The notes below the pieces were generated by a model. It worked only from the letters and a program-made list of their open reading frames with translations. It had not been told where the DNA came from and searched no databases. 64,000 nt of DNA from Candidatus Woesearchaeota archaeon. GTDB lineage: Archaea > Nanobdellota > Nanobdellia > Woesearchaeales > ARS49. The stretch spans positions 459,528 through 523,527 of the forward strand of contig JAHWHZ010000001.1 in the NCBI GenBank assembly GCA_019322895.1, read 5' to 3'. Below, piece by piece: positions 29,636-48,179 of this stretch; position 1 is the stretch's first letter; every line of letters begins with the position of its first letter. A program made the translations under genes and the position numbers.

Positions 29636-32600
29636 ATGGGAAGCAAACATACATTACTAGTTATTTTAGTGTTAATTCTGTTTTCTAGCACTGTTTATGC
29701 TGTTGATTTTGAGCTTGCATTTGGGTATCCAATGTATAATCTCTCTTATAGCAAACAGTTTTGGGGTGTTGCTGACACAACAGGCCCTTATTTTATCTTG
29801 GAAAATACAGGAATCTGGACTATTCATCCTACTGAAATCGAAGTGGAGGGTTTATTAGAGGTAGACCCGCCTTTTATTGCTGTAGAAGCCAGAGGGCACT
29901 ATACAGACAGATATGCTTGTGAAGGAAACAGGGGCGGCGGAGGATGTAATTCCCATTTGAAAGTTTTATTAGAATATAATCAAAAAGAGGTATGGGACAA
30001 TGTCCGGCGCGCAGACAATCCTCCTAACTGGTATGAAGATCCTATCAATGTTATTTCAGATTATGTAGAATATAAGAGAGTTTCTGGAAGAAAGGAGTGT
30101 ACTAATAGAGATCCTGATGTGAATTGCTGGCCTGACCAGGTAATTCAATTTTATTATGCTCCAATCATTGTAAAGGATTTTAACAATGTATTTGTTGAAG
30201 ATGAGACAAAATCTCTTGGAACTGTTGGAGAGATAATGGGAGAGGATTTTCCAGATGGTGTTAATGCAACTGTTTACACTGGAATTTTTTCAGAGAATAA
30301 ACAGGTTCTTTTCTGGATTGCTGATTATCCTGATTCTTCTGCAGATTATCCTGCGGAGCCTGAAAAAAATACTGCAGACAAGACAGATTATATACTTGCA
30401 TGCGCGGATTTTGACCAAAATAATAAATGCGATCACTTACAGTCTACTGTCCAGACCTGCTGGGATGAAGATGGTGCCTGGTTTGGCAGGAATTATCATG
30501 AAGGCCAGTTATATGGTGGAGGATTTGTGGAAGGATGTTGTGTTGATAATGACCCTCAAAAAATTGCGCGCCTGAATGCAGCAGGAATTGAAGCTTTTCA
30601 CTGCGGATATTATGATCACAGGCTCAAGGCATTGTGCGGTTATGATGAGCAGGGAAATCATCACTGGGCTTCCTTAGAGCAGGCAGGCAGTATTGCAGAT
30701 TTAAGAGGCTGTCCTGGTTTTAATATTGTATCAAATGGAAGAAGATTTTATGGATGTCGCGCCGGAAATTTAGGGTTTGCTACATTTGATACAAATGTTT
30801 CTGTTCAAAGGACATGGTATGACTGGGAAGGCAAGTGGCATGCAAAAGCTGAAAATGAAGACTTGTTTGAAGGCGCATTATATACTAATGCCAATGATTG
30901 GCTTAGAGATTATTTTGATGACAATGGAAAAACTGATTTATGTAGATTAACTGAGAGCATGTGCAATGCGGAGAATGCATATGAAAGCGCGTATAAGTGC
31001 GACTTTACTGATGATCCTAATACCGAAAGATATCAGGTTAATAGTGATGAAGCAACTGTTTATTGGGACTTATCTACAGATGACTGGCCTGATTTGTTTT
31101 GTCCATATAGGATAAGCATATATCCTCTGGAACACCAAACGAAGAGTATCTACAGTGCTTCTGGCACACACACTTATCTTTGTGATTCTACCACTGGAAA
31201 CTTGTTTGAATGTACAGGAGACCTGCCTTCTTTTACAAATCCTTATGAAAATCCTGGTGCAATTGCTGAGACAGGCAGGACAACTGTTGAGCTGGTTGGT
31301 GCAGGCGGCTGTCCTCCAGGAATATTGTCTTACTGGACTTTTGATGATACTGTGCAGGATTCTAAAGGAGATTTCAATGGATTGCTTTCTGGCGCAACTT
31401 ATGCAGAAGGCATTGTTAATAATGCCCTATTGTTTGATGGCAATGACAAGGTGACTGTTTCAGGAAATCTAACAACCCCTGCAAGTAATTTTACGATTGA
31501 GTCATGGATTTATCCTGAGCAGGTTGATGAAGGCACTTATTCAATATTAGAAAAGCCTGGCTCTTACAAGCTTGAGATAGTTGATAGAAGACTTAAGGCA
31601 GGAGTCAATATTGATGGAACCTGGGAAAACTTTGGACATGCATTAGTAAGCAAGAATGACTGGGCTCACATCGCTTTGATTTTTAATGGCAACACTGCGA
31701 GACTTTTCAAGAATGGCGACCCTGTCGGTCATGCTGACAAGACAGGAAGCATAACAAAAACAATCAATCCTTTGGTTATTGGCCAGAATTTCATAGGCAA
31801 GATTGATGAAGTCGCTCTTTATGATGAATCGCTTTCCTATACTCTCTTTAAGGCGCATAAGGATGCTGAAAGAAACTATTGCAATCTTTCCACCGGATTT
31901 ACACAAATAGAATATTGTGCATCAGATGGCTGGTGGACGTATGATTTAGATACAAAAGATGAAAGCTCTTGTGAAAAATCTGGATTCAAGTGGACAGGAC
32001 ATTTGTGCTGCTCAGAAGACAATGATGAAAATGAATTTTACAATGATTGGGATTCTCCTGCACTGCCTTTTGATTATAGCAGGAAATCTGCAAATGTAGA
32101 TTTATTGCCAGATTCAGATAATCCGACATTTATCACATTAAAACCTAGAAAATCAAGAATTACTATTTACGGTCCTGCAAGGTTTGAGATGCGCGTGTAT
32201 TCTTCTGAGAAATTCGGAACAACATATGATAGATGTGAAGAGATTGAAGATAAAACACGCATCATCGAAATAAAATCAGGAGAATCAAGAACATTCAGGG
32301 CAGAACAAGGGCCTGCAGAAGGAGGAGACAATTGCATTTACAGGGAGATAGAGCTTGAGTCAAAGCCATTTGAGGCTCTTGGCGGATGCTGGAACAAGAC
32401 TTTTGTGCCGATTGGGCATTTTGCAGAGCCGCACGTCATTAATTATCACGGCAAGTTTTACAGCTGCGGCATACCTGCATTAGATTTGATTGATACGCGT
32501 AATGGCAGCACGCTTGTTAAGTCTGTCAGTCCTACATGCAGTCACATAATGCTTCATGCAAGAGGGCCGTTACTGCACGCTGTCTGCAATCCTGGAAAGG

Positions 32601-32782
32601 ACTGGCAGTTCACAAACAATTCTGATGCAACAATGCAAAAAAGTGTTGCATGGGATATTGCAGGAACAAATGCAACTGAAATAGGGTGTTGCGGTCCTGA
32701 TGAGTGCTGGAATGGTTTTAATTGCGTTAAAATCGGCAGGTTCCAGGAAATAGATTCAGTCTCATATTTTTGCGGGGAATAA
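29636..32782 (+). CDS. large secreted Cys-rich surface protein with concanavalin-A-like/LamG domain
   Basis: 1048 aa with a signal peptide. The LamG_3-like segment is LSYWTFDDT...NGLLSGATY...LFDG...DWAHIALIFNGNTARLFKNGDPVG...KIDEVALYD. More than 50 Cys. Confidence 0.65.
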   Translation: MGSKHTLLVILVLILFSSTVYAVDFELAFGYPMYNLSYSKQFWGVADTTGPYFILENTGIWTIHPTEIEVEGLLEVDPPFIAVEARGHYTDRYACEGNRGGGGCNSHLKVLLEYNQKEVWDNVRRADNPPNWYEDPINVISDYVEYKRVSGRKECTNRDPDVNCWPDQVIQFYYAPIIVKDFNNVFVEDETKSLGTVGEIMGEDFPDGVNATVYTGIFSENKQVLFWIADYPDSSADYPAEPEKNTADKTDYILACADFDQNNKCDHLQSTVQTCWDEDGAWFGRNYHEGQLYGGGFVEGCCVDNDPQKIARLNAAGIEAFHCGYYDHRLKALCGYDEQGNHHWASLEQAGSIADLRGCPGFNIVSNGRRFYGCRAGNLGFATFDTNVSVQRTWYDWEGKWHAKAENEDLFEGALYTNANDWLRDYFDDNGKTDLCRLTESMCNAENAYESAYKCDFTDDPNTERYQVNSDEATVYWDLSTDDWPDLFCPYRISIYPLEHQTKSIYSASGTHTYLCDSTTGNLFECTGDLPSFTNPYENPGAIAETGRTTVELVGAGGCPPGILSYWTFDDTVQDSKGDFNGLLSGATYAEGIVNNALLFDGNDKVTVSGNLTTPASNFTIESWIYPEQVDEGTYSILEKPGSYKLEIVDRRLKAGVNIDGTWENFGHALVSKNDWAHIALIFNGNTARLFKNGDPVGHADKTGSITKTINPLVIGQNFIGKIDEVALYDESLSYTLFKAHKDAERNYCNLSTGFTQIEYCASDGWWTYDLDTKDESSCEKSGFKWTGHLCCSEDNDENEFYNDWDSPALPFDYSRKSANVDLLPDSDNPTFITLKPRKSRITIYGPARFEMRVYSSEKFGTTYDRCEEIEDKTRIIEIKSGESRTFRAEQGPAEGGDNCIYREIELESKPFEALGGCWNKTFVPIGHFAEPHVINYHGKFYSCGIPALDLIDTRNGSTLVKSVSPTCSHIMLHARGPLLHAVCNPGKDWQFTNNSDATMQKSVAWDIAGTNATEIGCCGPDECWNGFNCVKIGRFQEIDSVSYFCGE

Positions 32783-32797
32783 AAAAGAGGTGATTAG

Positions 32798-33922
32798 TTG
32801 AAAAAACCATTGATTTGGTTATGTATAATCATTTTGCTAGTTTTTGCTGTTTTTGCAGCAGACTGGTATGGGCCTCTTAGCTTAAAGCAAAATTGGGACA
32901 GGACAGAATCTGGCGTGTGTCCGAACATAAAGCAGTGTCTTGTGAGTGCAAGCCCGCAGGCAAAAGCCGAATATAATGACCAGCCAGGAAAATATTTTAC
33001 AGACCCTCCTGGCCCCAAATGCATTGCAGACAAGCAGCATATTCTTGATTATTACTGCGAAGAAGGCAGCTGGACAACAAGAACAAAACTTATTGCCTTG
33101 ACTTTGATGGATTTTGCAAGCACGCAGTCAAACAAGTTTGCCTTGTTCTGCGGAAATTACAAGGACGCTCTTAATCATTACCAGTATCTTGTGGGTTCTA
33201 ACACAGATACAAAATTAGTTGAAGACTTTCTGAAAGATTACAGATGCCCGCAATACAATACAACGACAAAAGAAGCATGCGTGAACAACATCTGTGTCTT
33301 GAAATACCAGGATGGAGTTGCAATAGGCACTAGCTTGAACACAAAAATAAATGATGACGAGCATTCGTTCCTGCTTGCATTGAATCATTCAAGTGATGCC
33401 TGCGACAATATAAATTCAGGCGAAAATTTTCAAAGATGCACAGACTGGAACAAAAGAGGAAGAGCATTTTATAACCCCGGCATAAATTCATTTATTTACT
33501 TGTCTACAGATGATACTCTTCCTTCTGCAAAATATTCTGCAGCATATAATGCATTCATCAAGAATAACCTGGAGTCAATAGAAGATTATGCAGCTAATAT
33601 CCAGGATTCAAATCTTAGTTTTGTCAAGAATACAAGATTATTCAATAATTTTTATTATTCCCAGCAAGGAAGCGGAAAAATAATTTTTGCATTTTTAGAA
33701 GAGGGTCAGGAACTTTTTGATTATGATTATGTCGGTGCAAGATACAAGGGTATTGACTTAGGTAATAATCCTTGCAGTGATGTGTTTGAGCAGTATGATG
33801 CCTGGTCATTTTGCGAAGAGACAAGCGGAGACATAAAGATAATCGCAAAGCAGACCCCTGACAAAAAAAGCCCGCTGGTTGAAGCATGGGCAGATTTGTC
33901 AGGAAAATTAAGGCCAAAATGA
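32798..33922 (+). CDS. secreted Cys-rich protein
   Basis: 374 aa. The TTG start at 32798 is preceded by AGAGGTGA at 5-nt spacing. Signal peptide MKKPLIWLCIIILLVFAVFA. Confidence 0.55.
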   Translation: MKKPLIWLCIIILLVFAVFAADWYGPLSLKQNWDRTESGVCPNIKQCLVSASPQAKAEYNDQPGKYFTDPPGPKCIADKQHILDYYCEEGSWTTRTKLIALTLMDFASTQSNKFALFCGNYKDALNHYQYLVGSNTDTKLVEDFLKDYRCPQYNTTTKEACVNNICVLKYQDGVAIGTSLNTKINDDEHSFLLALNHSSDACDNINSGENFQRCTDWNKRGRAFYNPGINSFIYLSTDDTLPSAKYSAAYNAFIKNNLESIEDYAANIQDSNLSFVKNTRLFNNFYYSQQGSGKIIFAFLEEGQELFDYDYVGARYKGIDLGNNPCSDVFEQYDAWSFCEETSGDIKIIAKQTPDKKSPLVEAWADLSGKLRPK

Positions 33923-35196
33923 GAAACGCACAGATAACATTGTTTTTGATTATTGGAATCGTTATTTTGCTGGGGGCTGGATTGTTGATTTACATGGTAT
34001 CAATAACACCTGAAAAAAAAGGAGAAGAAACAGTGGTTGGGCAGACTTTAAGGCAGCAGGCAGTGCAGCCTGTCAAGGATTACATAACTACTTGTCTTGA
34101 TATTGTTTCTTCAGATGCCCTTGAATTAGTTGGCAAGCAGGGCGGAAGATTGTATCAAGAGCAGGGAAGCATTATTCCTAATCCTTCTGTAGATAAGCTT
34201 GGAATTATTTTCATGGATTATGATGACTCGAAGCTATCGTATTCGATAGTTCCTCCAAAAGGCAATGTTGGCGCCTTGTTTTTTTCTGATGTTCCAGAAT
34301 ATCCTTGGCCCAGCTTCCCATATACAGCCAATGGAAACACCTCAGATCTTGGTTACTTTGGATTATCAAGGCTGCCGGCATTGTACAAGAATTTCAGCAC
34401 AGACTCTATACAACAGCAATTAGAGACATACATCTCAAACAATATCGCAAAATGCACTTTGTGGGATAATAAGTTCCCTGGCTTTAAGATTACAACAGGA
34501 ACACCTATGACAACAATGATTATTGCAGAGAATCTTACACACTTGCGGCAGGAAGAATATATTTCATTTGTGCTTGACTGGCCTGTTACAATAACAGAAG
34601 AAAGCAGTGGTGCCAGGATTACTTTAGATAGGTTCACGGTCAATTATCCTGTCGCATTTGGCAGGATGTATTATACAATCAAGAGCATAGTAGAAGCTGA
34701 AATATCTAACATGAGTTATGAGCCGATTACAACAGATGCTTATTTTATCACAATAAACAATAATGCTTACAACAAGGATGACATAATTGTTTACCAGGAC
34801 AAGAAATACAGTCTCAAGGGGGTTCCTTATGAATTCAGGATTGCAAGAAAGAACCGGGCTCCTGCACTTCATTTGATTGATCAGAAAGAGATAGACAAGT
34901 TTGCATATTGCGTGGATATTGTGAAGTTCTCTTTGCAGGGAAACAAGTTGTATGCAAGTCCTGACCTGGAAGACGGCGATCCTTTTCCATTAAACAGTAC
35001 AGCAATTGATCCAGACAATGATGTGATTTCCTTTAAGCTCAAGCCAACTACGCCAAAAGTGGATTCATATGCAGTTGCTTTGTACAAGGATAATCCTGCA
35101 AAAGGAGGATTGCTTTTCAAGGTCTATGCAGATGACGGCGAGCTTGAAGATTACCAGCAGATAAGGATAATTCCTAAAGGATGTGCAGAAGATTGA
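33919..35196 (+). CDS. membrane-anchored protein with class III (prepilin-like) signal-peptide-type N-terminus
   Basis: The start is set at ATG 33919 (MRNAQITLFLIIGIVILLGAGLL), which overlaps the upstream stop as ATGA. The tracker's start is 33886. Confidence 0.5.
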   Translation: MRNAQITLFLIIGIVILLGAGLLIYMVSITPEKKGEETVVGQTLRQQAVQPVKDYITTCLDIVSSDALELVGKQGGRLYQEQGSIIPNPSVDKLGIIFMDYDDSKLSYSIVPPKGNVGALFFSDVPEYPWPSFPYTANGNTSDLGYFGLSRLPALYKNFSTDSIQQQLETYISNNIAKCTLWDNKFPGFKITTGTPMTTMIIAENLTHLRQEEYISFVLDWPVTITEESSGARITLDRFTVNYPVAFGRMYYTIKSIVEAEISNMSYEPITTDAYFITINNNAYNKDDIIVYQDKKYSLKGVPYEFRIARKNRAPALHLIDQKEIDKFAYCVDIVKFSLQGNKLYASPDLEDGDPFPLNSTAIDPDNDVISFKLKPTTPKVDSYAVALYKDNPAKGGLLFKVYADDGELEDYQQIRIIPKGCAED

Positions 35197-38100
35197 ATAA
35201 AAAAATATTATTGATATCCATTATGATGATTTTAACAGCATTAGCTGCAGCTGTTTTTGCGCAGCAGTTTGGCTGCTGCTGTGATCCTATTGTCAGGACA
35301 GGCTCTATAATGAACCAGTCAGCATGCGTCTCCCCTTTTGTATTTGTTCCAATTCCTGCTTTTGGCTTTACTGGCTGCCCTGCTTTGTGCAATGCAACAA
35401 ACATAACTGCACCGCCTACAGTCCCGCCTAGCTGCACTGCTCCTGGATACAAGCCGCCTGTCTCAAATCTTTTTGTCTTGCCTGTTAAAGGCGAAAAAGC
35501 AGTCCAGATTGACTTTAATCTTCCCTGCCCTGTGAATCATGTCAAGATTTACCGCTGCCAAGGCTCTGGATGCACTAACTTTACCTTGTTGACAACCCTT
35601 GGCTCTTCTAATTCATACAAGGATGAGTCTGCTGACTTGCTATGGGACGAGGATTATAATTACAAGATTATTGCAAACTATAAAGTGTCTGGTGATTCAA
35701 CTCCAGCAACAGCAGAAGTAAATATAGGAGACTTGGAGTGCTGGTATCAGACAACAAATGACTTGTTTTGCATTGCTCCGTATTATTATGACCAGTTCAA
35801 GAGCTATCTTAAAAAATACGGCTACAAGATAGCTTCTGCAGATGATTTTAAGGCGGATTTTGATTCAGAAAGAGATTCTGTATTCAATGACTTTTATAGA
35901 AAATCCTGGCGCTGCAATGACATGAATCAATTGTCAAAGCCTTCTCCACAGGTTTCCTGCACAGAGGATGAAATATGCATCTCAGATGGAAGCACTGCAA
36001 AGTGTGTTGAGAGTGTTTCCTGCGATCTTGGAGGAGATTTTGGCCTGCAGTCTGATGTAGATGACTGCGAGGGAGAATATGGAGAAATCAAGTATTGCTT
36101 CTTGGACAAGTCAACTACTGTTGTAAACAAGTGCTATCCTTGCAATCCTCAGATGACTTGTTATGATTATCATTCAGAAGATGCCTGTCTTAGAGATAAT
36201 TGTGGCGCAGGCCAGTGTGCATGGACAGATGTGTTTCCTGATTTAGGAATAGGTGTTTGTTATGACGCGCGTTTTGATGCGTGCAGCTTGTGCCAGGCAA
36301 GGCCAAGCAGCAGTGCTTCAAACAAGGAAGGCTTTAATGAGGTGTTTGATGCTTGCACTGAGGAAAAAGCAAGAGCACTTTCTACAGATGAAATACCTTG
36401 CTTCTTCAATAAAAATACGCAGGAAGGCCAGAGCTGCGATTATGTTGATTGTACAGCTTATACGCAGACGCAGTGCAGTTCTCCTGCTGGAGGAATCCAG
36501 TTAAATTCAGACAATTCAATAAAAGTTGGCAGCAATGATGCCTGCCAGATAAATGTGTGCCAGTATTCCGTTGAGACAGGATGCGTGAAGAATGCAAATG
36601 GAGCATCAGGTGTTGGCTGGTCTGACTGCCTTGATGCAGAAGATCCTGAATTATGTGAAAAAGATTATTTTCCTCCTGAAACAATTGCTGTCTTGACTGG
36701 AGAAGCTCCTGGAAAGCACGATTATATTGACTTGATAATAAATGACATGACAAGCAGGACAGGCAAGACAAAAGAGATGCAGGGCGAGCCAGGATACAAG
36801 ACATACTTGTGCATTGTTTCAGCAAATAATTCCTGCAATATTGCTTCAGCATTTCCTATCACCACAACAAAATCAAGATTGATAATAAATGATTTGAACC
36901 TGCAGGACGGCCAGGATGTTGTTGGCAAATTCAGCGAGGGAAACAACAAGGTCAAGTTTTATTCTGTTGATCCTAACAAGAATCTGGAAGTCATAAAGGA
37001 AGTTATTGTTTTTGCATGTGACAAGTGTTCAGGCCCAAAAGCAATTAACATAACTGTTACAGGAGCAAATGAGGTTAATGGAAAGTTTTACACAAGGGTT
37101 TTGCAGCCTTCAATAAAGATTACTTTTGATGAGCCTGCAGAATTGATTGCCTCCAGCCTGGACAAGGCAGGTGTTTTGCAATCGCTAGCATCTTCTCCTA
37201 CTTCTGGATTGAATTACCAGTATACTTTCATGCCAAACAACCAGCTGTCAGAAGGAGTCTATAGGTTCTCAGTCAATGCAAAAGATGATAATGGTGTTTC
37301 AATGGATAATCCTGTTGTCTTTGACTTGTACATAGACACAACACCTCCGACTGTTGTGATTACTCCAGAGGATGGTGTAGAGTTTGAGACAAAAGATGTT
37401 GCAGTTGCCTTGAATTTCAGCGAGCCTGTCTTTTTCAACAAGACAACACTGGATGAGGTTGTCTTCATAAATGAGTTTGCAAAAGAATCATTTCCGATAT
37501 ATCTTTCAAGAGAGCTCAGCTCAGAAAACAGCAAGTATTTTTCAGGCATTGTAACAAATCTTAAGGCAGGATTAAAAATAGTCAATGTTGATGTCACTGA
37601 TTATGCAGGCAATGTCTTGAGAACAAAATCTTATTTCTCAGTTTTTGCAGGCCCTCCAAAAATCAGGATGGTACATCCGAGCTGGGGAATCTCGTCAGTA
37701 TTCTCTTTCAATGTAACAGTTGAATCGTCTACAAAAGCAAAGTGCAAGTATATCTATGATGTTCCTGCACCTCCGCCTGCAACACAGTTTGATAGTTTGA
37801 GTGATTTTGATTCAAGCGACGGCATATATCATGTAATCAATCAAGTCACGATTCCTTACGGCGATACTTCAACACATTCCCTGCACGTATACTGCAAAGC
37901 AGGAGAATTCAATATCTCAAGGCAGTCATTTAACTTGTTTATTGATTCAATAGCTCCAAAGATAGTTTCTGCTTACGCAAATCCAGACCCTATTGTTGAG
38001 CCAGTGGAAACAGGTGCAGAGATTTACTCAACAAGGCTGCAGGTGCAGACAGATGAAGAAGGATTCTGCAAGTACAGTGCAGACAAGCAGGACTTCAAGG

Positions 38101-39851
38101 AGATGGAAAGTTTCTTCCCTGGATTTGATGTGTATCCCAAGAAATCCCATTCAGTTGCAGTCAATGTTTCTGAAGTCAAGGGCTACACATATTATGTTGC
38201 CTGCAAAGACAAGGCAGAACTATTGTCATCATCAAAGCCGATCACATTCACTATTGACTTGACAGCCTTGTTTGCAATAAAGAGCACTACAGAGCCTTAT
38301 TCCAGCACAGAATTGTTTGACCTGCGTATTGAAAGCAATAAAAGGTCATTCTGCTTTTTTGGAGAAAATAAGAACAGCATCTCAAACTGCTTTGGGGCAT
38401 GTGAATTCACTAATGGCCATGCCCAGCCAATCACAAAGCCTGCTGGAACTTACACGTTCTTTGTTAAGTGCAATACCGGCTCTGGAGGGGAATCGAGCAA
38501 TGTGCTTAATATCACTGTGACAGTTGATACCAGCCCTCCTGTTATGGAGTATGTTGATGACAGCTCTACACTGCCTGGGGAGCCAGACATATCATGGTAT
38601 CCTGACAGGCTAAAGGTCAAGTTCAAGGGCAAGGATCCTGAGACAAAAGTCATAAAATATTATTATCTTTTAGAGACTGCATTTGCAAGAGAGCTTGTTG
38701 TGAACTGGACTCCAAGTCTTGAGCTAAATGGAACTTCTATCTTTGTAAAAGCAAACTTGTCTGACGGCCAGAGATATGTTTTTAGGGTAAGGCCTGTGAA
38801 TCTTGTCGGCCTGGTTGGAAATTTCAGTTCAAGTGACGGAGTGACAGTTGATTTGTCAAAAATGCCTCCTGTCTGTGCTAATGGAGAAAAAGATGCAAAT
38901 GAAACTGATATTGACTGCGGAGGCATGTGCGCAGGCTGTGCAGTAGGTAAAAATTGCCTGAAGAATAATGACTGTGAATCAGTGTATTGTGCAGAGAATG
39001 TTTGTGCAGAGCCTTCTTGTACAGATGGCGTAAGAAATGGCCAGGAGACTGATGTTGACTGCGGCGGTCCTGAGTGTCCGAAATGCATGCTTAACAAGAC
39101 ATGTGCAGAAAATACTGATTGTGATTCTGGCAGCTGCTTGTTTGGAAAATGTGCTGTTGATACCTGCAAAAATGGTGTTCTTGACAACACAGAGTCTGAT
39201 ATTGATTGCGGAGGTGCATGCCCATCAAGGTGCGGCAGTGGAATGAACTGCAACCTGCCAGGTGATTGCGCAGAAGAACTTGCCTGCATTGACAATACTT
39301 GTAGTGTTCCTCTTGACTTAGATGAAGATGGTGTTCCTGATTATCTTGATATCTGCCCTAATACTCTTCCAGGTGTTCCTGTTGATGCACAAGGATGCGA
39401 GATTGTTGAAGAGATTCCTGCTGCAGAAAAGCCTTCCTTCTTGTGGACTCTCATAAAGTTCTTGCTGATACTTGCAGTGCTTGGAGGCCTTGGATTTGGA
39501 GGATATTATGCTTACAAGAAAGGATATTTAGATAAAGTGATTGCAAAGTTCAAGAAAGCCCCTCCTGCTGCGCCTGAAATAAAGCCTGCTGCTGTAAAAG
39601 CAAGGCCAAAGCCTAAGCCAGTAGGGCCTACACCTGAAGAAAGGATTGCTGCCTTGCGAAAGTTTGCAAAAAAGAAGGAGCGGCCTGCAATAACAGAAGA
39701 GTTTGTTCCATTAGAGAAATTAAAAACTAAAAAAAGGCCTAAAACAAAGGCTTTTGAGAAGCTAAAGAAGCTTAAATCAAAGAAAAAAGCTTCTAAGAAA
39801 AAATCTAAAGAAGAGGCCATAGCAAAGCTGAGGAAGATAAGGAAAAAATGA
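35181..39851 (+). CDS. giant (1556 aa) type-I-membrane surface protein: Sec signal, Cys-rich modules, Ig-like regions, three or four novel 6-Cys tandem repeats, TSP-type-3-like Ca-binding motif, C-terminal TM and Lys-rich cytoplasmic tail
   Basis: Signal ...AAAVFAQQ. Repeats of the form CxxGxxNxxETD(I/V)DCGGxCxxC...C...DC.S..C....C at about 38866-39310. DLDEDGVPDYLDICPNT matches DxDxDGxxDxxDxCP. TM segment FLWTLIKFLLILAVLGGLGFGGYY. Tail KKAPPAAPEIKP...KKLKSKKKASKKKSKEE. Confidence 0.7.
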   Translation: MCRRLNKKILLISIMMILTALAAAVFAQQFGCCCDPIVRTGSIMNQSACVSPFVFVPIPAFGFTGCPALCNATNITAPPTVPPSCTAPGYKPPVSNLFVLPVKGEKAVQIDFNLPCPVNHVKIYRCQGSGCTNFTLLTTLGSSNSYKDESADLLWDEDYNYKIIANYKVSGDSTPATAEVNIGDLECWYQTTNDLFCIAPYYYDQFKSYLKKYGYKIASADDFKADFDSERDSVFNDFYRKSWRCNDMNQLSKPSPQVSCTEDEICISDGSTAKCVESVSCDLGGDFGLQSDVDDCEGEYGEIKYCFLDKSTTVVNKCYPCNPQMTCYDYHSEDACLRDNCGAGQCAWTDVFPDLGIGVCYDARFDACSLCQARPSSSASNKEGFNEVFDACTEEKARALSTDEIPCFFNKNTQEGQSCDYVDCTAYTQTQCSSPAGGIQLNSDNSIKVGSNDACQINVCQYSVETGCVKNANGASGVGWSDCLDAEDPELCEKDYFPPETIAVLTGEAPGKHDYIDLIINDMTSRTGKTKEMQGEPGYKTYLCIVSANNSCNIASAFPITTTKSRLIINDLNLQDGQDVVGKFSEGNNKVKFYSVDPNKNLEVIKEVIVFACDKCSGPKAINITVTGANEVNGKFYTRVLQPSIKITFDEPAELIASSLDKAGVLQSLASSPTSGLNYQYTFMPNNQLSEGVYRFSVNAKDDNGVSMDNPVVFDLYIDTTPPTVVITPEDGVEFETKDVAVALNFSEPVFFNKTTLDEVVFINEFAKESFPIYLSRELSSENSKYFSGIVTNLKAGLKIVNVDVTDYAGNVLRTKSYFSVFAGPPKIRMVHPSWGISSVFSFNVTVESSTKAKCKYIYDVPAPPPATQFDSLSDFDSSDGIYHVINQVTIPYGDTSTHSLHVYCKAGEFNISRQSFNLFIDSIAPKIVSAYANPDPIVEPVETGAEIYSTRLQVQTDEEGFCKYSADKQDFKEMESFFPGFDVYPKKSHSVAVNVSEVKGYTYYVACKDKAELLSSSKPITFTIDLTALFAIKSTTEPYSSTELFDLRIESNKRSFCFFGENKNSISNCFGACEFTNGHAQPITKPAGTYTFFVKCNTGSGGESSNVLNITVTVDTSPPVMEYVDDSSTLPGEPDISWYPDRLKVKFKGKDPETKVIKYYYLLETAFARELVVNWTPSLELNGTSIFVKANLSDGQRYVFRVRPVNLVGLVGNFSSSDGVTVDLSKMPPVCANGEKDANETDIDCGGMCAGCAVGKNCLKNNDCESVYCAENVCAEPSCTDGVRNGQETDVDCGGPECPKCMLNKTCAENTDCDSGSCLFGKCAVDTCKNGVLDNTESDIDCGGACPSRCGSGMNCNLPGDCAEELACIDNTCSVPLDLDEDGVPDYLDICPNTLPGVPVDAQGCEIVEEIPAAEKPSFLWTLIKFLLILAVLGGLGFGGYYAYKKGYLDKVIAKFKKAPPAAPEIKPAAVKARPKPKPVGPTPEERIAALRKFAKKKERPAITEEFVPLEKLKTKKRPKTKAFEKLKKLKSKKKASKKKSKEEAIAKLRKIRKK
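38866..39310 (+). repeat. tandem array of about 45-aa six-cysteine modules inside the giant surface protein
   Basis: PPVCANGEKDANETDIDCGGMCAGCAVGKNCLKNNDCESVYCAENVC / PSCTDGVRNGQETDVDCGGPECPKCMLNKTCAENTDCDSGSCLFGKC / DTCKNGVLDNTESDIDCGGACPSRCGSGMNCNLPGDCAEELACIDNTC. Confidence 0.6.
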
Positions 39852-40321
39852 AAAAAGCGCAGATGATAGGCCAGATATTTATTTTTGTAGTTGCTGCAAT
39901 AATTTTTATCCTTATCCTTATGTATGGGTATAAGGCAATCTCTAATTTTTTGCAGCGTTCTGAGCAGGTTGCATTGATTGATTTCAAGTCTGATTTAGAA
40001 TCTTCTGTAGAGGTCATCAAGAGGGATTATGGCAGTGTGAGAAAGCTTGAATTAAAGCTGCCAAAAAGATATACAGAGCTCTGCATAATTGATATAAACA
40101 ATTGCGAGCCGCTAAAGAAACAGAGGCCTTTGATGTATTCGACGTGTATTGCAGGCAGTGAGAATGTCATACTTGTTCCTAAGCAGGAAACTCCTATCTT
40201 TCTTCCAGACATAACTGTTTTAGGCGGCTACACTTGTGTTGATGTTGCCCACGGCAATGTTGTACTGGGCCTTAAGGGTCTTGGCAAGTCAACACAGATT
40301 TCAGGGTGGCCTGTTCCATAA
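39848..40321 (+). CDS. pilin-like protein with archaeal class III signal peptide
   Basis: MKKAQMIGQIFIFVVAAIIFILILM... The ATG overlaps the upstream stop (ATGA). Confidence 0.55.
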   Translation: MKKAQMIGQIFIFVVAAIIFILILMYGYKAISNFLQRSEQVALIDFKSDLESSVEVIKRDYGSVRKLELKLPKRYTELCIIDINNCEPLKKQRPLMYSTCIAGSENVILVPKQETPIFLPDITVLGGYTCVDVAHGNVVLGLKGLGKSTQISGWPVP

Positions 40322-41358
40322 TGAAAAAACGCGGTTTTGAGATGCAGTTTCACTGGATTTTTATTCTGATAGCTGGCGCTGTAATCCTTGCTTTCTTTTT
40401 TTCTGTAGTTGCCAAGCAAAAATCGCTTTCTGAGCAAAAGCTTTCCATAACCCTCTCAGAGAATATTGAAGCGGTTTTTTCTGGCGCAATTGAAAGCAAG
40501 GGAACTGCCCAGTTGCTTGCAATGCCTAAAGGGGGACTGTCTTTTTCCTGCTCAGAGGCTTGTGACTGTAATTTTTGGATTGATGACAAGGCAACTTCTT
40601 TCAGCGATAAGATCCTGTTTGCTCCCTCCTTGATTGAAGGCCAGGATGCTGTGGCCTGGTCAAATGAATGGAAGATGCCTTTTAGGATAACTAATTTCCT
40701 GTACATCACAAATCCTAATATCAAGTATTATCTTGTTTATGAGGCTGGCAAGAATGACCGCTTGTTTGATAGGATAAATAAGTCATTTCCACCTGGATTG
40801 AATGTGGCTGTTTTGAGAGACCCGAATGAAGTAGAGGATGTTCCTTATGAAGGTTATCCGGAGACTAAGTTTATATTTTTAGATGTGGTCAATCCTGAGA
40901 TTAACCTGATGGGCATGGACAGTGATTTCAAGAGAGAAGAGGTTTCTGCAATAAATATCCAGCCAAATGCAAATTCAATCACTTTTTACGAGAAAACGCC
41001 TAAAGAGATTGAATTTACATCCAAATCATCTCCTTTTGCAGGCGAGCCGTGGATATTTGCCGCAATATTCGCTGCAGATAAGCAGATGTATGATTGTGGC
41101 TTGCGGGCAGCTTTCCTTAAGCTGAGTCATGTTGCGCAGGTAATTTATGGCAGGGCAAAGATGATACAGGCCAACATAACCCAAATAAAACCTGAATGCA
41201 CATATTTGCTTGACAGTTTTGACGTGCTTATTGAAAGCTCAAAAAGTTTTGTAAATCAATTGGATTTTTCAAGTATTTCAGGCATAGCCCAGGCTGCTGA
41301 TGATATTGAGAGAGAAAACAAGAACATAATATTGTTATCCTGCCCAGAGATTTATTAA
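40321..41358 (+). CDS. pilin-like protein (class III signal peptide, 345 aa)
   Basis: MKKRG|FEMQFHWIFILIAGAVILAFFF. The start is set at ATG 40321, overlapping the upstream TAA by 1 nt. Confidence 0.55.
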   Translation: MKKRGFEMQFHWIFILIAGAVILAFFFSVVAKQKSLSEQKLSITLSENIEAVFSGAIESKGTAQLLAMPKGGLSFSCSEACDCNFWIDDKATSFSDKILFAPSLIEGQDAVAWSNEWKMPFRITNFLYITNPNIKYYLVYEAGKNDRLFDRINKSFPPGLNVAVLRDPNEVEDVPYEGYPETKFIFLDVVNPEINLMGMDSDFKREEVSAINIQPNANSITFYEKTPKEIEFTSKSSPFAGEPWIFAAIFAADKQMYDCGLRAAFLKLSHVAQVIYGRAKMIQANITQIKPECTYLLDSFDVLIESSKSFVNQLDFSSISGIAQAADDIERENKNIILLSCPEIY

Positions 41359-41359
41359 A

Positions 41360-41851
41360 ATGAGGCGAGCACAGATAAAGATGTTTGAAACAATGGCTGT
41401 GTTAGTGATATTCTTCTTTTTATTGGTCGGCGGTGCTGCTTTTTATTTTCAGATACAGAAAAGCAGCATAAAAAGAGATTTGGAGAGGCAGGAGCAGCTG
41501 CGTGCGTTTCAGGTTGTGCAGAAAGCGTTGTTTTTGCCAGAGCTTGACTGTTCTTTTGTGAGCATACAGAAAGATAATTGCTTTGATAAATTAAAAGTGA
41601 TTAATCTCCAAGAGCTTTTGAAGCAGGAAAAGTTTATGATTGATTATTTTAATGTGTTTGGTTTTTCCGAGATAAAGATAATGCAGCTTTATCCTGTTAA
41701 TGATACCTTTTCATATACTCTTTACCAGAACATTCCTGAAAAATATAAGTCCGTGATAAGCACGCAAAGCCCGATACTGCTGTTTGATGCAGTGCAGAAC
41801 AGGTATAATTTTGGTGTTGTTGAGGTTGATGTTTATGCAGAAGAGCAATAA
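41360..41851 (+). CDS. pilin-like protein (class III signal peptide)
   Basis: MRRAQIKMFETMAVLVIFFFLLVGG. Confidence 0.5.
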   Translation: MRRAQIKMFETMAVLVIFFFLLVGGAAFYFQIQKSSIKRDLERQEQLRAFQVVQKALFLPELDCSFVSIQKDNCFDKLKVINLQELLKQEKFMIDYFNVFGFSEIKIMQLYPVNDTFSYTLYQNIPEKYKSVISTQSPILLFDAVQNRYNFGVVEVDVYAEEQ

Positions 41852-42320
41852 GTCCCAGATGGAGATAATGGGTCTGGTAATTATAGTGATACTTGTTGCT
41901 ATTGGAATGCTTTTTGCAGTGCAGTTTTTGCTGAAAAAGCCTGCTGGAAGAGAGACTGCAGCTGTAAAGGAAAGCACGATTGCGGCAAATTTCCTTAACG
42001 CGATGCTTTCCACCACAACTGACTGCTATAACAGGAACATTCGCGAATTATTGCAGGACTGTGCTCTTACTGGCGGCACCACAAGATGCCCTGGCCAGAG
42101 AAACTCTTGTGATTATGCTGCAGACCAGATAAGAATAATGCTTGACAAGACATTGAGCACCTGGAACAAGGATTATTATTTCAGCATAAAAGGCGCTCCT
42201 GGTGTTGAGGCAATCTCTTTTGGCAATTCCTGCCCTGAATGTGAGAGAGAGGCAAAGATACATCCTGTTCCTGTCCGGCCTGGCTTTGAGATACAGCTTA
42301 CGCTTGAGATTTATAGTTAA
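41835..42320 (+). CDS. pilin-like protein (class III signal peptide), Cys-containing
   Basis: The start is set at ATG 41835 (MQKSNKSQMEIMGLVIIVILVAIGMLF). Four Cys in the globular part. Confidence 0.5.
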   Translation: MQKSNKSQMEIMGLVIIVILVAIGMLFAVQFLLKKPAGRETAAVKESTIAANFLNAMLSTTTDCYNRNIRELLQDCALTGGTTRCPGQRNSCDYAADQIRIMLDKTLSTWNKDYYFSIKGAPGVEAISFGNSCPECEREAKIHPVPVRPGFEIQLTLEIYS

Positions 42321-42350
42321 TCTTTATATATCGCTTTTTCTTTATATCTA

Positions 42351-44207
42351 ATGATGGGGGACAGCAGGATTAAAAGAGCATATAATTGGCTAGTGAAAAA
42401 GCCTTTGCGCACAGCAGGCATTGCAGGACTTATTGCATTGCCTTACAGTTTGTACAATGTTTTGAACTGGAAGATTTCTTTTATTGATTCAGAGGCGTCT
42501 GAGCTTTTTCAGGATCTTTTTGCAATAACCACTCCTGTATGGACAGCAGCCAGCACAGGCTTTTTTGCAGAATTGCTCAATACTTTTACTTATGAAGATA
42601 AATATCATCCAAGAACAAGATTAAGTGATTTCAAGAAGAGAAGGAAAATAAAAAAAGAACTTGCAAAAACTGATTTTGAGTCATTAATTGACAAGGAGTT
42701 TAAGTTGTTGAAGGCAGATAATGTCTTGAAGACGCTTTATGATGAAGGAATTAAAAGGCCAGGTATCACAGGAACTCCTGAAGGCACAGACAAGCTTGCT
42801 GAGCTGGCTGAAAAAGAAAAAAATCCAGCAATGCATTTTGATGCTGCATTTAATTATTTTGACCAGGATAAACATGATGAAGCTTTTATCCAGATGAGCA
42901 AGTTTCTTCAGCTTAATAAGGATATTTCTTTGCTTCATAAGCTTGATTTGACAATAAAAGACTTTTGCAACAGAACAGAAACTTTCTTGAATACCAGGAA
43001 TTCATTTCCCTTGTTTTATGCAGCCTTGATAGAGATATTGAAAAGAAATTATGACAGCGCCCTTTATTATTCTTCTTTTGCAAGAAAAACAGCTGAAGAA
43101 TTTGACAGTCCGATCAAGAAAGAAATATTTTGCCTTGACTCATTGATTCATCATGCACTGAATGCAAAGAATTCAAGCGAAATCTGGGCCAATTTTGTGA
43201 TAGAGACAAGAAAACAGCAGGCTCTTGAAAGGATTGCTGAAACAAAGAATCTTGTGAGGCAGGTGAAAGACAGCAGGTTCTTGTCAAAGACAATTGTGTT
43301 AAAAGACAAGCATGATAGAAAAGATCTTGAGGCAGAGGCAGAGATGACAAATTACATTAAAGGCATTCTTCCTACTAGAGATGAGCTCAAGAAGATAATC
43401 GGCGATGATATTGGAATAACATTTGATACTCCAGAGATGTTTTATCTTTCAGAAAAACCTGTCAATAATATGTATCCATTGGTCATGCGCCATGCTCCTG
43501 GAGAGACCTTGCTTGAGCAGTTTAAGAAAGAAAAATATTCTATGTTTCCTTTTATTGCTGTATGCCTGGCAAAGATTCATGCAGATGTCCCTGCTGAAAA
43601 AGTCAGGAAAAAGCAGCTTGAGATTATTCCTAAGTTAATGCGCAAGCTGACAGATCCTGATCTAAAGCTCTCAAAGGACCTGACTGAAAGAGTCCTTCGC
43701 AATTACAAGCCTGTGTTGAATCTTTTTAAGGACGCAACGTATGTCTATAATAAGGATGCGCATCCAGAAAACTGGCTGATACATGACAAGACAGTTATTG
43801 TTCTTGACTGCGAGAATAATTTCTTGGTCCCGCAGCAGTTTGACTTGGTTAATTTGCTTGAGTATTCAGATTACCTTACTGATATGCAGAAAGATTATGC
43901 AATAAAGCTGTATATTGATGCATATGAGGAATTCACAAATACCTTGATTGACAGGGAAAAGTTCAAGCTTACGTATTTAAATTCAGTGATTCAAAGAGCC
44001 ATCTCCTTGTGTACTGCCTGGTCTTCTGAATACAGGAAGTCAATGCATGCTGAAAGGCCTAAAGTAATTGCAAATGCCATTCACGCGATAGACAGGATGC
44101 AGAAAGAGCATAAAACATATTATTACAGGCATAAATTTAATTATTTGAATTTGCAGAGAGCTTTAGAAGAAATAAAGGAATTAGTCAGTGTTCAAGGCAA
44201 TCATTGA
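42351..44207 (+). CDS. hypothetical 618-aa protein; C-terminal region with protein-kinase-like (APH/ChoK-type) signature
   Basis: NKDAHPENWLIHDKTVIVLDCENNFLVPQQFDLVNLL resembles the HxDxxxxN ... DxE ... DL motifs of aminoglycoside/choline kinase-like folds. There is one N-terminal hydrophobic segment. Call is tentative. Confidence 0.3.
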   Translation: MMGDSRIKRAYNWLVKKPLRTAGIAGLIALPYSLYNVLNWKISFIDSEASELFQDLFAITTPVWTAASTGFFAELLNTFTYEDKYHPRTRLSDFKKRRKIKKELAKTDFESLIDKEFKLLKADNVLKTLYDEGIKRPGITGTPEGTDKLAELAEKEKNPAMHFDAAFNYFDQDKHDEAFIQMSKFLQLNKDISLLHKLDLTIKDFCNRTETFLNTRNSFPLFYAALIEILKRNYDSALYYSSFARKTAEEFDSPIKKEIFCLDSLIHHALNAKNSSEIWANFVIETRKQQALERIAETKNLVRQVKDSRFLSKTIVLKDKHDRKDLEAEAEMTNYIKGILPTRDELKKIIGDDIGITFDTPEMFYLSEKPVNNMYPLVMRHAPGETLLEQFKKEKYSMFPFIAVCLAKIHADVPAEKVRKKQLEIIPKLMRKLTDPDLKLSKDLTERVLRNYKPVLNLFKDATYVYNKDAHPENWLIHDKTVIVLDCENNFLVPQQFDLVNLLEYSDYLTDMQKDYAIKLYIDAYEEFTNTLIDREKFKLTYLNSVIQRAISLCTAWSSEYRKSMHAERPKVIANAIHAIDRMQKEHKTYYYRHKFNYLNLQRALEEIKELVSVQGNH

Positions 44208-46505: not shown

Positions 46506-46553
46506 TATGTTCTGCCATAAAGTTTATATATGAGAATTAGATTTTATATCAGC

Positions 46554-46895
46554 ATGAAGAAAAGAGGCCAAGGATTGCCAATAACCACCATAATCATAGC
46601 TGCTCTTGCACTGATAGTTCTCGTGGTTCTTATTTTCATATTTTCAGGCAAAATAAGGGTTTTTAGCGGAGAGATGGTTAGCTGCACAAGCAAGGGGGGT
46701 TTTTGTACTTCAAAAGCTTGCGTATTTGGCTATCAATCAGAAATCAAGAATACAGATTGTCCTTCTGGCCAGAAATGTTGCCTTACAATTCTTGGCGCTC
46801 CTGCAGATTCTCCTTGCGCTAATGATGATGACTGTGCAAAAGGTTTAGAGTGTAAAAATAACAAGTGCACCGCAAAGACTGCAGCTAAAAAATAG
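46554..46895 (+). CDS. small disulfide-rich pilin-like protein (candidate major pilin), paralog 2
   Basis: MKKRGQG|LPITTIIIAALALIVLVVL has an N-terminus nearly identical to 45755. The mature part has 10 Cys (knottin-like spacing). The start is set at ATG 46554. Confidence 0.55.
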   Translation: MKKRGQGLPITTIIIAALALIVLVVLIFIFSGKIRVFSGEMVSCTSKGGFCTSKACVFGYQSEIKNTDCPSGQKCCLTILGAPADSPCANDDDCAKGLECKNNKCTAKTAAKK

Positions 46896-48025: not shown

Positions 48026-48179
48026 GATGCAAAACAAGAAAGCAATGGAAATACCTGGATGGATTTATGTTGTAGGCTTGATAATCGGCTTGCTGGTCAT
48101 ATTGTTGATAATCTGGATTTCTGCAAAATCCGGCCAAAAGGCAACTGGTTTGCTGGATACCATCAAAGGATTACTATGA
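48012..48179 (+). CDS. micro-ORF (55 aa) with class III signal-peptide-like N-terminus
   Basis: MSLIKMQNKKA|MEIPGWIYVVGLIIGLLVILLIIW. Translationally coupled at both ends (14-nt overlap upstream, ATGA downstream). Confidence 0.3.
   Translation: MSLIKMQNKKAMEIPGWIYVVGLIIGLLVILLIIWISAKSGQKATGLLDTIKGLL

Follow-up and report, generated by a model that had tools for sequence, protein, structure and literature searches.

The segment considered here, positions 38866-39851 of a 64,000-nucleotide window of Candidatus Woesearchaeota contig JAHWHZ010000001.1 (the window being the whole stretch of DNA that was analysed), encodes the last 328 codons of a single uninterrupted open reading frame (ORF) of 1556 amino acids (35181-39851, forward strand). 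The protein is laid out, in order, as a signal peptide, an ectodomain of ~1200 residues that is FN3/Ig-rich and cysteine-rich, three eight-cysteine modules referred to as 'DCGG' modules, a thrombospondin type-3 (TSP3) repeat, a transmembrane helix and a basic tail. The segment is read as the membrane-proximal stalk, anchor and tail of a Woesearchaeota-wide type-I surface protein, likely a subunit of an attachment apparatus, and the probability of this reading is put at about 0.6. The type-I topology, in which the repeats would lie outside the cell and the tail inside, is suggested by the Sec-type signal peptide together with the positive-inside rule.

A full-length search returned ~85 full-length orthologs of 1334-2295 amino acids with 31-95% identity to the 1556-residue protein; the named ones all come from Candidatus Woesearchaeota, Nanoarchaeia or Nanoarchaeota, some of them annotated as 'thrombospondin type 3 repeat-containing protein'. 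The C-terminal order is kept in nearly all orthologs, with usually three DCGG units, at least one TSP3 motif, one transmembrane helix and a basic tail. In an alignment of 75 ortholog sequences, each of the 24 repeat cysteines is either invariant or conserved at 90% or more. The first-pass annotation of this DNA had proposed an extracellular disulfide-rich segment that leads through a transmembrane helix into a basic cytoplasmic tail, and this layout is borne out by its conservation in the orthologs.

The eight-cysteine module

The three modules span nucleotides 38874-39302 and measure 44-46 residues each, from first to eighth cysteine. They had been claimed as tandem repeats and are so far beyond chance: pairwise scores between copies lie 7-10 standard deviations above shuffled controls, and the module profile returns the window copies with per-repeat E-values of 1e-14 to 5e-11 and independent domain E-values (i-E) of 6.5e-14 to 5.5e-11, these three units sitting among the profile's own 104. 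Their cysteine spacing, C-x13-C-x3/4-C-x2/3-C-x5-C-x5-C-x4/5-C-x4-C, fits in all three cases the family spacing C-x13-C-x3/4-C-x2/3-C-x5-C-x5-C-x4/5-C-x4/6-C, and their conserved-residue patterns read NGEKDANETDIDCGG, DGVRNGQETDVDCGG and NGVLDNTESDIDCGG, with D at position 33 in 3/3. Copy 3 is of a separate subtype, in which three residues (x3) separate C3 from C4 and five (x5) separate C6 from C7. This spacing is kept in the orthologs, across which each of the three copies retains its own subtype, so that the triplication of the module predates the radiation of the family.

Two details of the earlier description do not stand. The module was called six-cysteine, a miscount, since the pattern given with it holds the same eight cysteines that each repeat contains; and three to four copies were allowed, where there are exactly three, no fourth (degenerate) repeat having been found in a six-frame profile scan of the window. 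Elsewhere in the window, a cysteine-rich open stretch of 124 amino acids (46521-46892, forward frame) gives a weak match to the second half of the module (domain i-E 0.009, whole-sequence E 1.2), which is probably chance or an unrelated small cysteine-rich peptide. A second very large ORF (48059-51700, forward; 1213 amino acids) has no Pfam match and is without the DCGG module, as the six-frame scan found none there. Antisense to the repeat region lies a 210-residue ORF (38663-39295, reverse), placed inside strongly conserved coding sequence; it is a mechanical reverse-strand ORF, and nothing marks it as a gene.

The module was compared with Pfam-A (2025 copy), NCBIfam (2026) and the PDB, the latter by sequence and by fold (Foldseek), using a 104-unit alignment (A1) with the consensus CxDGxxNGxETDVDCGGxCxxCxxGxxCxxxxDCxSxxCxxxxC. 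Scans of the whole protein and of the C-terminus gave no Pfam-A or NCBIfam match on the repeats, and nine proteins with up to 28 module repeats likewise gave no Pfam match on them. None of the 104 individual units matched Pfam better than E=0.003, the weak matches being Dickkopf sub-domains, the EB module and LEAP-2. PDB sequence searches with a 181-residue segment and with the 104-unit profile stayed at chance level (best LEAP-2, E=0.29, on the second half), and a homolog search with a 44-residue profile returned only two short fragments. EGF, laminin-EGF, PSI and TNFR are absent from the Pfam matches of the protein, of the 104 units (E up to 10) and of the nine multi-repeat proteins. The earlier remark that the repeats match no EGF, PSI or TNFR module is thus upheld, and extends to every other Pfam-A or NCBIfam model and PDB chain at significance; no confident assignment to an existing family emerged from the library, PDB sequence or fold searches. 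The first half of the module was also considered as a degenerate TSP3 repeat, which is ruled out by an hhalign comparison of the module profile with a TSP3 profile (probability 0.3%).

With respect to fold, an AlphaFold 2 (AF2) model of residues 1223-1417, made from 75 aligned sequences, has a predicted local distance difference test score (pLDDT) of 93.8 and a predicted TM-score of 0.65, and Foldseek of this model against the PDB finds nothing below E=0.5. Partial matches of 21-30 columns involve knottin toxins and squash inhibitors, with target-normalised TM-scores of ~0.6-0.8 for the knottins, and weaker, longer overlaps involve Dkk4-N and colipase. The TSP3-bearing OmpA 5wtl is matched too.

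The module had also been called novel. It is uncurated, and that part of the claim stands, but it is a very common building block. At E up to 1e-3 the A1 profile matches 15,878 representatives of clusters built at 50% identity, a number that falls to 1,922 for E up to 1e-30, and single proteins have up to 39 module copies. A genome scan for ETDVDCGG, made with a narrower alignment (A3), confirmed at least 576 loci, of which the best 80 were examined for taxonomy. These 80 are mostly Myxococcota (Sorangium, Polyangium, Nannocystis, Minicystis, Anaeromyxobacter, Bradymonadia), the other hosts being a Methanosarcinales metagenome-assembled genome, Woesearchaeota, Burkholderia pyrrocinia, Solirubrobacterales, Thermomicrobiales, Phycisphaerae and a Candidate Phyla Radiation (CPR) bacterium. 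Eukaryotic occurrences include the rotifer Adineta ricciae and the green alga Chromochloris zofingiensis, the latter with 21 copies, and another Woesearchaeota protein holds 24. Module proteins carry source names that refer to other domains only (fibrinogen-like, IPT/TIG, RCC1) or are simply 'hypothetical', and the module is strung between unrelated extracellular domains such as Lectin_C, F5/8-C, LTD, CBM_3, fibrinogen-like and IPT/TIG. The distribution is patchy (L003-L082; P0219; P0003): the module is very abundant in Myxococcota, and its occurrences in Burkholderia, Actinomycetota, Chloroflexota, Planctomycetota, CPR, Methanosarcinales, Woesearchaeota, one green alga and one bdelloid rotifer are sporadic. 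This pattern suggests that an extracellular building block has spread horizontally.

The internal organisation of the module can be approached from natural variation, with half-unit and cysteine co-loss counts taken over 2892 units from the retrieved proteins and residue frequencies over 2093 complete units. The commonest spacings among 490 units are (13,4,2,5,5,4,4) and (13,3,2,5,5,4,4). First halves also occur by themselves: they make up 152 of the 2892 units, and residues ~1200-1560 of a 2182-residue protein (P0227) hold ~39 copies of a 25-residue half-unit, CTDGIQNGDETDVDCGGxxCxxC, half-unit arrays being present in P0251 too. Because such first-half-only units and the P0227 array exist, the first four cysteines are regarded as a self-contained, autonomous unit. 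C1 and C3 are jointly lost in 26 units from at least 15 proteins, C2 and C4 in 2 units, and C5 and C7 in 2 units. From this co-loss pattern the simplest pairing would be C1-C3, C2-C4, C5-C7 and C6-C8, for which support is good at C1-C3 and thin at the other pairs.

The module would accordingly be pictured as two mini-units, each with two disulfides. The first half, C-x-D-G-x2-N-G-x-E-T-D-V-D-C-G-G-x-C-x2-C, would form an acidic loop in which the side chains of D3, N7, E10, D12 and D14 chelate Ca2+. The second half, C-x5-C-x4-C-x4-C, would form a beta-hairpin with disulfides C5-C7 and C6-C8, resembling LEAP-2 and Dickkopf sub-domains; the disulfides of LEAP-2 follow a 1-3, 2-4 pattern. Over the complete units E10 is conserved in 100%, D14 and G16 in 99%, D33 in 95% and G17 in 94%, followed by D3 in 83% (N in 16%), D12 in 78% and N7 in 66% (D in 24%). 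Conserved carboxylate and amide side chains arranged in a ring within a disulfide-locked loop are typical of the Ca-binding LDLa, cbEGF and TSP3 modules, and on account of this resemblance the first half probably binds calcium.

Because the module serves elsewhere as a variable-number linker between extracellular binding domains, a spacer role is supported, and the three modules, together with the presumably calcium-binding TSP3 repeat, would form a protease-resistant, semi-rigid spacer that holds the large ectodomain off the membrane. The modules might instead be functional binders, whether knottin- or Dickkopf-like ligands, receptors or inhibitors, or Ca-dependent glycan binders, that touch the host envelope or the pilin-like proteins encoded nearby. 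The partial fold matches fall on knottin toxins, protease inhibitors, Dkk4-N and colipase, all of them binding modules, some proteins consist almost entirely of modules, and the copy-specific subtypes, such as the x3/x5 spacing of copy 3, suggest position-specific roles. Surface positions between the cysteines are nevertheless highly variable across the family, as expected of a scaffold, and a copy number ranging from 1 to 39 is typical of spacers; binding by the modules is considered rather unlikely.

TSP3 repeat, membrane anchor and tail

Following the third module is a 28-residue unit whose core reads DLDEDGVPDYLDICPNT...GC, that is, the consensus DxDxDGxxDxxDxCP and a second cysteine. Its earlier assignment to the TSP type-3 repeats, a putative calcium-binding motif, is correct. 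Taken alone, the unit scores E=2.3e-5 against Pfam TSP_3 (PF02412), at 24.4 bits or 0.6 below the gathering score of 25, and the same model is matched by 40 of the 41 orthologous units; the 328-residue C-terminus scanned whole at E up to 1 gave no TSP_3 match. A profile of the 41 units finds all five repeats of the OmpA structure 5wtl (E=5e-16), followed by COMP (0.018) and thrombospondin-1 (0.098), and the NCBIfam PA1041 anchor lipoprotein model matches the same stretch at E ~1e-3. Matches of the profile to 'Pizza' designed propellers were discarded as a short-motif artefact (NTPSGVAVDSAG). The orthologous units share the consensus DxDxDGVxDxxDxCPxTPxGxxVDxxGC, in which D1, D3, D5, D12, C14, T17, G27 and C28 are invariant. 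In many orthologs the stretch from the first TSP3 motif to the transmembrane helix is enlarged by additional TSP3 repeats of bacterial type (DPDxDGLTN…DTDxDGWSD…GTNPLD), which the clade of the window's protein lacks.

A short acidic linker connects the TSP3 repeat to the hydrophobic segment, which has an equivalent in nearly all orthologs and would anchor the protein as a transmembrane helix. Beyond it the tail is 38% Lys/Arg with a net charge of ~+31. The single helix and the ~110-residue tail of about 40% Lys/Arg had been recognised at first pass, in close agreement with these figures. Describing the tail as poly-Lys holds insofar as it is Lys-rich, with 35 lysines, but the tail also has a motif structure, a Pro-rich juxtamembrane stretch being followed by three phi-x-x-L-(R/K)-K-phi motifs (IAALRKF, FEKLKKL and IAKLRKI). 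Of 82 ortholog tails, 63 contain an LRxFAK-like motif, and the tails of longer orthologs end with a conserved …KLRITAxYY…HK…EL. Ortholog tails are 96-342 residues long, with net charges of +4 to +33 (median +15) and 19-38% Lys/Arg, which places the window's protein at the basic extreme. As the motifs are conserved across widely varying charge, a specific cytoplasmic contact is indicated besides electrostatic attraction to the membrane, and the tail with its LRKF-type motifs would bind anionic lipid head groups, a cytoplasmic partner, or both, and would hold the protein in place from the inner side. At first pass, nucleic acid, acidic lipids and the cytoskeleton had been named as candidate ligands of the tail. 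A PGF-CTERM/archaeosortase sorting signal was rejected, with no NCBIfam match, no PGF motif before the transmembrane helix and a tail of 111 residues carrying conserved motifs.

The composition of the tail, together with the five pilin-like proteins of the operon described below, might also point to nucleic acid binding, with the protein and its pilin-like partners engaged in taking up DNA or passing it between symbiont and host; in bacteria, DNA uptake is a known activity of type IV pilus-like systems. This is regarded as improbable. Extreme basicity is limited to the clade of the window's protein, and ortholog tails that fall to +4 and 19% Lys/Arg still keep LRxFAK-type motifs, which speaks for contact with a protein or a lipid and against unspecific binding of polyanions; moreover, no nucleic-acid-binding family appears in the Pfam scan and no DNA-translocation genes were seen in the operon.

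Ectodomain, operon and proposed role

Positions of the features in the window are collected in Table 1.

Table 1. Features of the 1556-residue surface protein and its operon, with window positions in nucleotides.
Feature	Position	Strand	Basis
Gene for the 1556-residue type-I membrane protein (predicted topology)	35181..39851	+	ORF list; ~85 full-length orthologs
Signal peptide, Sec-type, MCRRLNKKILLISIMMILTALAAAVFA/QQ, then invariant GCCCDP	35181..35261	+	Sequence reading; cleavage site inferred
N-terminal ectodomain, aa 27-640, FN3-like domain(s) and Cys-rich region	35259..37100	+	AF2 model m347f77cda172, Foldseek
Middle ectodomain, Ig-like/FN3-like domains	37089..38873	+	Pfam scan
DCGG module copy 1, aa 1232-1275, CANGEKDANETDIDCGGMCAGCAVGKNCLKNNDCESVYCAENVC	38874..39005	+	Profile 47.2 bits; AF2 pLDDT ~96
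DCGG module copy 2, aa 1280-1324, CTDGVRNGQETDVDCGGPECPKCMLNKTCAENTDCDSGSCLFGKC	39018..39152	+	Profile 49.4 bits; AF2 pLDDT ~96
DCGG module copy 3, aa 1329-1374, CKNGVLDNTESDIDCGGACPSRCGSGMNCNLPGDCAEELACIDNTC	39165..39302	+	Profile 37.8 bits; AF2 pLDDT ~96
TSP type-3 repeat (bacterial OmpA-type), aa 1379-1406, DLDEDGVPDYLDICPNTLPGVPVDAQGC, two invariant Cys	39315..39398	+	Pfam TSP_3, 5wtl profile match
Single transmembrane helix, ~aa 1420-1445, FLWTLIKFLLILAVLGGLGFGGYYAY	39438..39515	+	Kyte-Doolittle window >1.8 at aa 1418-1442
Basic tail (predicted cytoplasmic), 111 aa, K35 R7 E10 D1	39516..39848	+	Composition; ortholog tails
Upstream operon genes	29636..35196	+	ORF list, synteny with L001 and L002
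Downstream operon genes	39848..44207	+	ORF list, synteny with L001 and L002

The protein begins with a hydrophobic segment (residues 7-30) in the context …LAAAVFA/QQFGCCCDP, where the slash marks the predicted cleavage site. Three consecutive cysteines (GCCCDP, residues 31-36, 35271-35288) come directly after this site and are conserved in all aligned orthologs (C6, C7 and C8 invariant in alignment A4; consensus AQxxxGCCCDP); they could bind a metal, join protein molecules by a disulfide or be a place of modification. The protein has 77 cysteines in total, 42 of them in residues 28-620. The AF2 model of residues 27-640 has a pLDDT of 90.0, and Foldseek against the PDB recovers FN3 domains in it with E-values down to 5.5e-6 and no clear match to its cysteine-rich core, which could represent a further fold not yet characterised and may be the part that does the binding. 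Further along, Big_13 matches residues 637-720 above cutoff (E=2.9e-7, 31.3 bits), Big_3_3 (residues 678-730) and a weak Y_Y_Y (residues 1085-1115) falling below the Pfam cutoff. No enzyme fold was detected in the ectodomain by the Pfam scan or by AF2 and Foldseek of residues 27-640.

The gene sits in a nine-gene operon (29636-44207, forward), in which the 1556-residue ORF overlaps at its start with the end of the ORF upstream, and the ORF downstream begins 4 nucleotides before the 1556-residue ORF ends. In order, the genes encode a giant protein with Laminin_G_3, a 374-residue protein, a 436-residue protein, the 1556-residue protein, proteins of 157, ~350, ~165 and ~160 residues and an APH-like protein of ~620 residues. 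The Laminin_G_3 protein (1048 amino acids) and the 374-residue protein are secreted and cysteine-rich, the 436-residue protein has a pilin-like (class III) N-terminus, RNAQ/ITLFLIIG, and the four small downstream proteins have pilin-like N-termini as well (KKAQ/MIGQIF, KKRG/FEMQF, RRAQ/IKMFE and KSQ/MEIMG); the last gene encodes a membrane protein of 618 residues with a weak APH (kinase-fold) match. Examined by eye, the five neighbours and their orthologs show a short basic stretch, [GAS]-[QF] and a hydrophobic helix (e.g. RRAQ/IKMFETMAVLVIFFF), a pattern that resembles archaeal class III (pilin-type) signal peptides. The gene order recurs with little change in two distant Woesearchaeota contigs (L001, 4505-19490; L002, 5875-20890), beside PheRS, L34e and RNase P p30, with one of the two contigs lacking the 374-residue gene and having two reverse-strand genes before the APH-like gene. 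The surroundings consist of archaeal housekeeping genes: eRF1, PheRS alpha and beta, RadA, RPA, FEN1, RFC and a PAN-like AAA ATPase.

Because this conserved operon combines two secreted cysteine-rich proteins with five pilin-like ones, the 1556-residue protein is most likely one subunit of a Woesearchaeota cell-surface apparatus, which would attach to a host or a substrate. The attachment role is plausible in view of the operon, of an FN3/Ig ectodomain that looks like an adhesin and of the symbiotic way of life presumed for DPANN archaea. As a rival, a Woesearchaeota S-layer protein or its anchor would also suit a large secreted chain that has a signal peptide, an Ig/FN3-rich body and a C-terminal transmembrane anchor, the modules, helix and tail forming the membrane stalk of the lattice as in SlaB-type or haloarchaeal S-layer glycoproteins, and both its lineage-wide conservation beside housekeeping genes and the other envelope proteins that follow in the operon are in keeping with this. 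Yet 77 cysteines, richly conserved, are atypical of known archaeal S-layer proteins, the 18 N-glycosylation sequons are no clear excess over the 12.7 +/- 3.2 of shuffled sequences (z ~1.7), the operon partners are pilin-like, and no S-layer family is found among the Pfam or NCBIfam matches, so an S-layer function is doubtful.

Several points also weigh against the stalk-and-attachment reading itself. The five pilin-like neighbours match no curated pilin family (best PilV, E=0.009), for which reason 'pilin-like' is a reading of their N-termini only, and there is no pilus-assembly ATPase or platform gene among the window ORFs scanned. Host attachment is argued from the DPANN lifestyle and not from the locus. 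The term 'stalk' is argued from position and from the use of the module elsewhere, and the modules could bind ligands themselves. At the level of the module, calcium binding by the first half is deduced from conserved acidic residues alone, the disulfide pairing draws on co-loss statistics that are thin except for C1-C3, and the knottin-like Foldseek matches (E 0.9-10) could mean a three-disulfide knot that crosses both halves.

Comparison with known systems

What is already familiar is the general layout, in which a cysteine-rich stalk, a transmembrane helix and a tail act as spacer and anchor, along with TSP3, a known family. What appears new, by the libraries and literature searched, is the eight-cysteine module as a very large uncurated family with a separable half-unit, and the conserved Woesearchaeota operon. 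No published description of the module or the operon was found in literature on the motif, on DPANN thrombospondin proteins, on Woesearchaeota surface proteins or on DPANN attachment organelles, and the paper on the attachment organelle of Nanobdellota YN1 makes no mention of pilin, operon, cysteine, conserved, class III or transmembrane. A family with at least 15,878 cluster representatives has neither a Pfam-A or NCBIfam model nor a solved structure; its definition would annotate thousands of 'hypothetical' extracellular proteins, especially myxobacterial ones, and would add a new small scaffold with a likely calcium site. How the Woesearchaeota, archaea not yet cultivated and presumed to be symbionts, make contact with other cells is not known. 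An operon with giant cysteine-rich surface proteins and five pilin-like proteins, whose largest member combines a stalk, an anchor and conserved tail motifs, is a concrete candidate for such contact. Only tentatively, the DCGG unit and its 25-residue half-unit may constitute a large undescribed family of calcium-binding, disulfide-locked extracellular modules spread over Myxococcota, several other bacterial phyla, DPANN, methanogen-related archaea and some eukaryotes. In Woesearchaeota, three fixed copies would then make up the stalk of a host-attachment device, encoded by the operon throughout the lineage and built of pilin-like and giant cysteine-rich proteins.

Likeness to known small disulfide-rich folds is confined to part of the module. 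The second half, G-x2-C-x4-D-C-x-S-x2-C-x4-C, aligns with the core of LEAP-2 (PDB 2l1q) and resembles the N- and C-terminal sub-domains of Dickkopf (PF04706, PF21481) through weak Pfam and partial Foldseek matches. None of the matches to LEAP-2, Dickkopf, colipase or inhibitor cystine knots is significant, and they cover only ~20-30 residues; these families have nothing that corresponds to the first half and its D/N/E-rich loop and invariant DCGG. The TSP3 repeat has a core common to thrombospondin, the OmpA of Capnocytophaga gingivalis (PDB 5wtl) and the 1556-residue protein, and repeats of the TSP3_bac kind (PF18884) have been added in many orthologs. Thrombospondins and OmpA proteins carry arrays of the repeat, whereas the window's protein has one copy, which adjoins the transmembrane helix of a putative archaeal type-I protein, the OmpA repeats adjoining a peptidoglycan-binding domain.

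The calcium-binding repeats LDL-receptor class A, cbEGF and Notch LNR resemble the DCGG module in being short, disulfide-locked and furnished with clustered conserved Asp, Asn and Glu residues, and they serve in tandem as rigid extracellular spacers; the DCGG module differs from them in cysteine spacing and consensus, and no Pfam model of these families matches it. The stalk of integrin beta is composed of four eight-cysteine I-EGF repeats and is followed by a transmembrane helix and a short cytoplasmic tail. There is no relationship to integrin beta in sequence or fold (no EGF matches), the organism is an archaeon and the tail of the 1556-residue protein is far more basic. The analogy is one of layout, with what would be a large adhesive ectodomain, a few membrane-proximal eight-cysteine modules, one transmembrane helix and a tail with short conserved motifs.

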